Positions 2,105 to 3,463 of a stretch of 8,258 nucleotides of DNA are shown here, piece after piece. The stretch is taken from the IMG/VR virus record IMGVR_UViG_2563366829_000019; one strand, 5' to 3'. This DNA comes from a virus. Taxonomy: Duplodnaviria; Heunggongvirae; Uroviricota; Caudoviricetes. Within the stretch, counting starts at the first letter, position 1. Every line of letters starts with the position of its first letter. The translations under genes and the position numbers were made by a program. Under the pieces are notes generated by a model. The model saw only the letters and a program-made list of their open reading frames with translations, did not search any database and was not told the origin of the DNA.

Positions 2105-2258
2105 TCATCGCCCCACTCATCACAATATGCTTCGACCGGAGTTTTTCCTGCTTCATAATCATCACGCCATGCTTCAGCATCAGCAGCACTGCCACCACGT
2201 AACTCTGCATAGTCCATTAACAGTTCATGCCATGCTTCAAAACTGACGTTGTATTTAG
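2101..2258 (-). pseudogene. 3'-terminal fragment (51 codons) of a gene cut by IS5
   Basis: Seen in sequence: frame open from the IS5 boundary at 2258 down to TGA at 2103..2101, translating to ...KYNVSFEAWHELLMDYAELRGGSAADAEAWRDDYEAGKTPVEAYCDEWGDE. No start codon; the 5' part is missing. Confidence 0.5.
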
Positions 2259-3453
2259 GGAAGGTGCGAATAAGCGGGGAAATTCTTCTCGGCTGACTCA
2301 GTCATTTCATTTCTTCATGTTTGAGCCGATTTTTTCTCCCGTAAATGCCTTGAATCAGCCTATTTAGACCGTTTCTTCGCCATTTAAGGCGTTATCCCCA
2401 GTTTTTAGTGAGATCTCTCCCACTGACGTATCATTTGGTCCACCCGAAACAGGTTGGCCAGGGTGAATAACATCGCCAGTTGGTTATCGTTTTTCAGCAG
2501 CCCCTTGTATCTGGCTTTCACGAAGCCGAACTGCCGCTTGATGATGCGAAACGGGTGCTCCACCTTGGCACGGATGCTGGCTTTCATGTATTCGATGTTG
2601 ATGGCCGTTTTGTTCTTGCGCGGATGCTGCTTCAAGGTTTTTACCTTGCCGGGACGCTCGGCGATCAGCCAGTCCACATCCACCTCGGCCAGCTCCTCGC
2701 GCTGTGGCGCTCCTTGGTAGCCGGCATCGGCTGAGACAAATTGCTCCTCTCCATGAAGCAGATTACCCAGCTGATTGAGGTCATGCTCGTTGGCCGCGGT
2801 GGTGACTAGGCTGTGGGTCAGGCCACTCTTGGCATCGACACCAATGTGGGCCTTCATGCCAAAGTGCCACTGATTGCCTTTCTTGGTCTGATGCATCTCC
2901 GGATCGCGTTGCTGCTCTTTGTTCTTGGTAGAGCTGGGTGCCTCAATGATGGTGGCATCCACCAAAGTGCCTTGGGTCATCATGACGCCTGCTTCGGCCA
3001 GCCAGCGATTGATGGTCTTGAACAATTGACGGGCCAGTTGATGCTGCTCGAGCAGGTGGCGGAAATTCATGATGGTGGTGCGATCCGGCAGGGCGCTATC
3101 CAGGGATAATCGGGCAAACAGGCGCATGGAGGCGATTTCGTACAGGGCATCTTCCATGGCACCGTCGCTCAGGTTGTACCAATGCTGCATGCAGTGAATA
3201 CGCAGCATGGTCTCCAGCGGATAGGGCCGTCGGCCATTGCCCGCCTTGGGATAAAACGGCTCGATGACAGCGGTCATATTCTGCCATGGCAGAATCTGCT
3301 CCATGCGGGAGAGGAAAATCTCTTTTCGGGTCTGACGGCGCTTAGTGCTGAATTCACTATCGGCGAAGGTGAGTTGATGGCTCATGATGTCCCTCTGGGA
3401 TGCGCTCCGGATGAATATGATGATCTCATATCAGGAACTTGTTCGCACCTTCC
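2259..3453 (-). mobile_element. IS5, complete 1195-bp copy
   Basis: Terminal inverted repeats GGAAGGTGCGAATAAG at 2259..2274 and GGAAGGTGCGAACAAG (reverse complement) at 3438..3453; length 1195 bp; encodes the 326-aa InsH transposase. Flanking 4-mers are TTAG (2255..2258) and TTAA (3454..3457). Confidence 0.95.
2405..3385 (-). CDS. insH: IS5 transposase InsH
   Basis: 326-aa product [13 protein letters not shown]...RQWERSH recognised as the IS5 transposase, correctly positioned within the IS5 ends. Confidence 0.95.
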
Positions 3454-3463
3454 TTAAAACACA

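Follow-up and report, generated by a model that had tools for sequence, protein, structure and literature searches.

The 8,258-bp stretch of DNA analyzed here (the window) covers the right-hand end of a lambda-like serU prophage in Escherichia coli, and contains one copy of the insertion sequence (IS) IS5 at the point where 8,076 bp of the prophage have been deleted. The product itself, the identity of its flanks to an undeleted relative, the agreement of both flanks with the IS5 target motif and a series of further deletions anchored at the same junction establish this as an IS5-associated deletion. Along its entire length, the window matched the E. coli MS 196-1 chromosome (NZ_CP146681.1), and the set used for comparison comprised 5,426 complete E. 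coli genomes.

IS5 at the junction of a deletion in the serU prophage

The element and the two 4-mers beside it are located as follows; L007 denotes the coordinates of the intact prophage locus of E. coli LC-1302-2020, which was used as the deletion reference.

2259-3453, minus strand: IS5, ISKpn26 isoform, 1,195 bp (inverted repeats, transposase and RefSeq)
2259-2274: right inverted repeat (IRR)
3438-3453: left inverted repeat (IRL), the transposase-proximal end
2405-3385, minus strand: transposase gene, 326 aa (DDE_Tnp_1, PF01609, E = 4.5e-35; DUF772, PF05598, E = 3.3e-21)
2255-2258: left flanking 4-mer TTAG (L007 3921-3924), the putative original IS5 target and the constant junction in three genomes
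3454-3457: right flanking 4-mer TTAA (L007 12001-12004), the deletion end in the window and the variable junction among relatives

The length of ~1,195 bp, the imperfect 16-bp terminal inverted repeats (GGAAGGTGCGAATAAG and CTTGTTCGCACCTTCC, which match at 15 of 16 positions and have the form GGAAGGTGCGAA(T/C)AAG) and the single long DDE transposase of ~326 aa with DDE_Tnp_1 and DUF772 domains all agree with the IS5 group. RefSeq names the protein an IS5-like element ISKpn26 family transposase (WP_000019440.1), and the window copy is 94.3% identical to an element in strain CP53 that RefSeq annotates as IS5 family. A preliminary description of this DNA had noted non-identical 4-mers on the two sides of IS5 and proposed an IS5-associated deletion; TTAG and TTAA are indeed present at these positions, without a perfect target duplication. 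Target duplications of IS5 show a strong (C/T)TA(A/G) motif (YTAR) (PMC5009759), and both flanks in the window fit it. YTAR starts account for 0.94% of local positions, so that two random breakpoints would both fall on the motif with p ~9e-5. This agreement at both flanks supports the idea that the transposase acted at both ends.

E. coli LC-1302-2020 carries the same serU prophage without IS5, as does strain N10. The left flank of the window is identical to LC-1302-2020 at 2258 of 2258 positions and the right flank at 4804 of 4805, and the flanks are collinear there, with the TTAG and TTAA sites separated by 8,076 bp. A single IS copy thus occupies the precise join between two segments that lie collinear but apart in the undeleted relative. 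The preliminary description had suggested a comparison with an intact serU prophage, and had held that immunity and replication genes were missing from between the two segments; the comparison bears this out, the intervening DNA consisting of immunity, replication and pL-operon genes. The block contains 17 annotated genes, none of which remains in the window when checked gene by gene: those for DUF7167, a hypothetical protein, ead/Ea22, DUF4406, DUF977 and DUF1627; the replication genes P, a DnaT-like gene in the O position (O-type) and ydaT; a cro-like gene of the Cro/CI family and a divergent cI-like gene for a repressor-like helix-turn-helix protein; and those for DUF1391, two hypothetical proteins, rha, dicB and DUF1482. 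The block was found at full length in 73 complete genomes, in 15 of them at an identity of at least 99.4%, and MS 196-1 was not among these full-length matches.

A genome without IS5 in which the flanks are directly contiguous, which had been named as the observation that would refute a deletion, was found in 0 of the 5,426 genomes by a query of the two flanks synthetically joined. Given this, and the 8,076 bp that separate the flanks in the intact prophage, the structure is a deletion rather than an insertion with a decayed duplication. An inversion or translocation with a reciprocal IS5 was also considered. The second IS5 copy with the reciprocal flank, which the preliminary description proposed to look for in the same genome, was not found: a query of the left flank plus the IS5 end matched the MS 196-1 chromosome at a single place. 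Because of this single match, and because this genome is not among the full-length matches to the 8-kb block, the DNA was lost and not moved. Three other genomes, DLI.5a, TOE17 and AST46, at first seemed to have nearly adjacent flanks without IS5, and were set aside as Qin-type prophages with 90% identity in which the flanks are not contiguous. In these, a pseudogenised homologue of the 171-aa gene that lies left of the deletion in the window directly adjoins dicB with no IS between them (locus L012 of DLI.5a, 4623-5743); they have lost the same immunity and replication region by a different route.

The deletion affects one gene on each side of IS5.

2101-2258, minus strand: remnant of a 58-aa nin-region gene, 3' 158 nt (WP_000753058.1 in the intact prophage; annotation, mapping and translation)
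3464-5938, plus strand: 824-aa exonuclease gene, intact, the last gene of the pL-side operon (open reading frame and Pfam)

The left flank had been described as the 3' end of a minus-strand gene without a start, and it corresponds to the 58-aa gene minus the ATG and the rest of its first 19 nt. The full-length protein begins MADFGSTKYNV..., whereas the window encodes it from KYNV onward, and the list of open reading frames (ORFs) of the window contains no ORF with a start at this remnant. The earlier claim that its frame reaches a stop within 8 codons across a clean junction holds for a modelled junction that retains TTAG and omits TTAA.

On the right, the exonuclease gene had been called RecE-like, a label that did not survive. 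Residues 643-814 form an Rv2179c-like DEDDh 3'-5' exoribonuclease domain (Pfam, E = 1.6e-67), a weak RNase_T match was also obtained, and the Pfam search of the 824-aa protein gave no RecE nuclease domain of the PD-(D/E)XK type. RefSeq labels the protein exonuclease or 3'-5' exonuclease. The gene takes the place of recE in the prophage without encoding RecE, and the likeness is positional only. Its ~640 N-terminal residues gave no Pfam match. Upstream of the gene, the intact prophage reads ...AATGAGGTTAAAACACAATG and the window ...CACCTTCCTTAAAACACAATG; the GAGG Shine-Dalgarno sequence directly left of the TTAA target was lost with the deletion, as were the native promoter region and the upstream operon, and the IS5 end now lies 10 bp before the ATG. 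With the Shine-Dalgarno sequence and the upstream operon gone, the gene is probably silent. The encoded protein is identical in the window and the intact prophage, and the deletion is probably recent.

A common left junction with three different right junctions

Using junction queries against the complete genomes, we found the exact left junction in three genomes only, MS 196-1, SW070919 and 23CRST038, which have identical IS5 copies and identical 2,258-bp left flanks. Searches of JGI metagenome contigs and GTDB representative genomes with exact patterns revealed no further carriers of this junction. The right junctions of the three genomes are as follows.

SW070919: IS5 followed by TTAA at L007 11868, with 133 bp more of the reference kept
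MS 196-1: IS5 followed by TTAA at L007 12001
23CRST038: IS5 followed by CTGA at window 3693-3696 (L007 12240; L008 23454), with the first 229 nt of the exonuclease gene gone

These junctions span 372 bp, and together with the constant left junction they form a nested series. Since the left junction is fixed and the right junctions vary, TTAG is taken to be the original insertion site, with deletion proceeding rightwards from IRL (window 3453). In MS 196-1 and 23CRST038, one chromosomal place each matches the IS5 end, which favors one ancestral insertion over repeated independent insertions.

Several further differences were observed among these genomes. The CTGA junction of 23CRST038 has no microhomology to the IS5 end. 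To the right of IS5 in SW070919 (L003 5454-5465), TT is followed by six A, whereas the intact prophage has seven; the missing A either reflects an assembly error in the homopolymer or is a genuine 1-bp difference at the junction. 23CRST038 has 39 single-nucleotide polymorphisms (SNPs) clustered in the middle of the exonuclease gene (window 4892-5362), and SW070919 has seven at the start of the integrase gene (window 6194-6558) together with a replaced Q/RusA/DUF968 module (L003 1-1300). Judging from their clustering, these SNPs look like recombination patches in otherwise identical prophages.

IS5 copies in related prophages gave a consistent picture. In strain 23AR0998 (L011 ~6546-7741), IS5 is flanked by a perfect TTAG/TTAG duplication; this simple insertion served as a positive control. 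In TUM13770 (L005 12458-13652), the flanks are TTAA and CTAG and 432 bp have been lost rightward. In CP53 (L010 6480-7674), the flanks are CTAA and CTAG, and the rightward loss amounts to ~4.06 kb, from downstream of the DUF7167 gene into ydaT. Within this prophage family, mismatched flanks were accompanied by a deletion and matched flanks were not. Across four lineages, nine of ten IS5 flanks fit YTAR. All copies in the family are co-oriented, with left junctions within ~350 bp of each other (L007 3924, 4181, 4205 and ~4270), and the zone downstream of the DUF7167 gene may be prone to IS5 insertion.

A further junction was seen in TUM14664 (L009 8000-9400), and the same one in strain 102651, where an ISKpn26-type IS5 joins a truncated sulfatase gene of the ydeN region to the homologous exonuclease region. 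This junction lies 150 bp upstream of the homologous exonuclease gene at a Qin-type locus and has a TTAC flank, and TUM14664 has ~25 places matching the IS5 end. It looks like another large IS5-associated deletion, by which most of a prophage was removed. The two strains were considered as a second use of the right-hand site of SW070919, which was ruled out by the different, Qin-type locus and the TTAC flank.

Possible routes to the deletion

IS copies lacking target duplications have been explained by adjacent deletions or by recombination between IS copies, and IS-linked deletions often extend over time (PMC11708052). IS5 is known for local hopping, and the deletions associated with it are anchored at copies already in place (PMC5009759). 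For the window, we propose that an ISKpn26-type IS5 would first have been inserted by simple transposition at TTAG in the 58-aa nin-region gene, giving TTAG-IS5-TTAG. The IRL of this resident copy would then have become linked to a YTAR site lying more to the right in the same DNA molecule, for which intramolecular replicative-type transposition, the classical 'adjacent deletion', is the favored route; the intervening DNA would be lost as a circle, and a single IS5 would remain between the old TTAG and the new TTAA. The product of this second step is what is seen in the window. We give this sequence of events, an insertion at TTAG followed by an IS5-anchored deletion through intramolecular transposition of the resident IS5, an even chance of being correct. 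The intramolecular route is favored because it needs one event per junction and because IS5-family elements reportedly transpose both replicatively and conservatively (PMC11708052).

The right ends lie within 372 bp of each other even though several kb of DNA are dispensable, and the simplest explanation is stepwise growth, in which a large first deletion was followed by short extensions. On this basis, ~7.9 kb would have been lost first (the state of SW070919), then another 133 bp (the window) and another 239 bp (23CRST038). From the positions of the junctions, the clustering of the right ends probably arose in this way.

The strongest competing route consists of a local hop and subsequent recombination, to which we attach a substantial likelihood somewhat short of even. 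Here the resident IS5 would copy itself to the nearby TTAA in direct orientation and duplicate that sequence, and RecA-dependent recombination would then delete one copy together with the 8 kb, leaving the same TTAG-IS5-TTAA product with the left junction still as the anchor. Such behavior is well represented in mutation-accumulation lines, in which 53 IS5 insertions fell within 10 kb of an existing copy compared with 15.5 expected, and in which 52 IS5 deletions were ascribed to recombination between direct copies, mostly with a novel insertion (PMC5009759). YTAR at both flanks also suits this route, and a nested series with a fixed left junction fits it equally well. However, an extra IS5 insertion in direct orientation is needed for each of the three right junctions, the two-copy intermediate was found in 0 of the 5,426 genomes, CTGA would be an unusual target for a genuine IS5 insertion, and the single chromosomal IS5 end in MS 196-1 and in 23CRST038 suggests that IS5 is not very active there.

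Several points also weigh against the proposed insertion and intramolecular deletion. Both routes yield an identical sequence, so that the preference for intramolecular transposition is one of parsimony, and replicative transposition is documented for IS903 and not directly for IS5 (PMC11708052). The CTGA flank of 23CRST038 does not fit YTAR. By flanking SNPs, LC-1302-2020 is no more distant from MS 196-1 than are the two other IS5-bearing genomes; only 4-5 sites group MS 196-1 with 23CRST038 against LC-1302-2020, the other differences being recombination patches, and the SNPs thus appear to support common descent of the three left junctions weakly. An ordering of the three deletion alleles and the intact prophage from SNPs was dropped, as these 4-5 informative sites are too few. 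Finally, the progenitor (TTAG-IS5-TTAG with the 8 kb intact) was not found in the complete E. coli genomes, and exact-pattern scans for IS5-IRL plus TTAG plus the deleted DNA had no hits among the JGI metagenome contigs and GTDB representative genomes. Its absence from these samples is compatible with its having existed.

It is very unlikely that the TTAG junction arose independently in the three strains, each through its own insertion and deletion at a hot spot. The four IS5 sites within ~350 bp in related prophages, all in one orientation, are in line with a hot spot, as are the recombination patches by which the prophages of SW070919 and 23CRST038 differ from that of MS 196-1. However, other lineages use other sites, and the exact site, orientation and identical IS5 sequence are common to these three genomes only; in two of them the junction provides the only chromosomal match to the IS5 end, and the clustering of the right ends is hard to square with independent events.

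A one-step origin, in which IS5 was captured into a double-strand break while a transposase-independent 8-kb deletion formed, with no earlier simple insertion, seems still more improbable. Such capture has been proposed for a duplication-less insertion of an IS5-family element in E. coli C, and an IS central to a deletion without target duplication is the pattern discussed there (PMC11708052); the failure to find the progenitor in the genomes, metagenome contigs and GTDB representatives scanned would also agree with it. It is opposed by the fit of both flanks to the transposase target motif, for which the chance expectation was given above, and by the three genomes with one exact and one different junction, which require events anchored at a pre-existing IS. 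A simple insertion without any deletion, in which one copy of the 4-bp duplication subsequently changed from G to A or from A to G, is suggested by the single-base difference between TTAG and TTAA, but is refuted by the separation of these flanks in an otherwise identical prophage, by their contiguity in none of the genomes and by the missing start of the 58-aa gene.

Returning to an anchored deletion from a resident IS5, the three isolates might represent IS5 'nibbling' in the wild, that is, repeated one-ended deletions from one resident IS5 end in a zone (L007 3924-4270) that recurrently attracts IS5 in one orientation, with selection perhaps favoring the joint loss of the repressor and toxic pL genes (dicB, ydfD-like). 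We regard this broader reading as tentative and rather unlikely. If it were true, the lineage would offer a natural setting in which to decide whether adjacent deletions by IS5 proper arise through replicative intramolecular transposition.

State of the prophage and comparison with known systems

From left to right, the window contains the end of a DUF968 gene, a 92-aa gene, rem, hokD and the 171-aa gene (all on the minus strand), followed by IS5, and then on the plus strand the exonuclease, DUF4224 and integrase genes. The remaining features are listed below.

407-658, minus strand: rem, of the pR-distal prophage module (annotation)
875-1030, minus strand: hokD, of the pR-distal prophage module (annotation; HOK_GEF, E = 1.2e-23)
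1589-2104, minus strand: 171-aa nin-region gene (WP_001289993.1), the last complete gene left of the deletion
5997-6200, plus strand: DUF4224 gene (ORF, annotation and Pfam)
6200-7225, plus strand: tyrosine integrase gene, an ORF of 341 aa with integrase domains (ORF and Pfam; the DUF4224 gene and the integrase together span 5997-7250)
7278-7367, minus strand: tRNA-Ser with anticodon CGA (serU), the attachment-site tRNA of the prophage (tRNA detection)
7461-8258: mtfA, next after serU (RefSeq annotation)

The tyrosine integrase gene adjoins tRNA-Ser(CGA) and the lambda-type modules occur in order, in agreement with a lambdoid prophage at serU, the location given in the preliminary description. 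According to annotation, the head, tail, lysis, Q and nin modules lie further left in the MS 196-1 locus, and RefSeq places a yersiniabactin island beyond mtfA. The integrase is annotated by RefSeq as a frameshifted pseudogene not only in MS 196-1, SW070919, 23CRST038 and TUM13770 but also in the 'intact' LC-1302-2020; given this frameshift, a defect in excision may predate the IS5 event.

The window and MS 196-1 differ at two positions, both synonymous. At 2561, inside the transposase gene, the window has C and MS 196-1 has T; at 5530, inside the exonuclease gene, the window has A and MS 196-1 has G. SW070919 and 23CRST038 agree with MS 196-1 at both positions, and LC-1302-2020 agrees with them at 5530. 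The window is therefore a copy or assembly slightly unlike any complete genome searched.

The prophage has lost its repressor, cro-like gene, replication genes, pR/pL region and dicB with its neighbors, and from this gene content it should be non-inducible and unable to replicate, so that the outcome would be a fixed cryptic prophage. For annotation, this means that the serU prophage of the MS 196-1 strain is defective and that its non-identical IS5 flanks can be relied on as an indicator of the loss. For IS biology, it adds one more natural example of duplication-less IS copies that mark deletions, and the common left junction with three right junctions gives a tidy picture of erosion that proceeds stepwise from one end. 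This is real but ordinary prophage decay, with no new element, mechanism or function; IS-anchored deletions, duplication-less IS copies and the grounding of prophages by IS elements are all already well documented (PMC11708052, PMC5009759).

The deletion can be compared with several known systems. Classical adjacent deletions by intramolecular replicative transposition, as for IS1 and IS903, have one fixed end and one variable end and form nested series. The present series resembles them in its fixed and variable ends and in a new junction at a target chosen by the transposase. It differs from IS903, which belongs to a different group of the IS5 family and for which replicative intramolecular transposition is documented, in that the element is IS5/ISKpn26 and the route is proposed on the basis of its products. 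IS150 deletions in the E. coli long-term evolution experiment (Ngan et al. 2024, PMC11708052) likewise have the IS at the junction without target duplication, a prior simple insertion at the anchored end and later extension from the same IS end; the present case concerns IS5 in natural isolates rather than a time-resolved experiment, and its progenitor insertion is deduced. The IS5 deletions in E. coli K-12 mutation-accumulation lines (Lee et al. 2016, PMC5009759) are similar in the IS family, YTAR targets, pre-existing IS5 anchor and kilobase size, and in the recurrent loss of cryptic-prophage DNA there. Those deletions were ascribed to recombination between two copies (PMC5009759), whereas here, for an ISKpn26 isoform, that route and intramolecular transposition would leave the same sequence. 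Qin-type cryptic prophages share the same gene modules and are likewise grounded prophages that have lost replication genes. These modules, as in the Qin prophage of K-12, are rem, hokD, DUF968/ydfU, rusA-like, Q-like, dicB, ydfD and exonuclease. Unlike the prophage in the window, Qin-type elements occupy a different chromosomal site, and in DLI.5a the homologue of the 171-aa gene abuts dicB without an IS.

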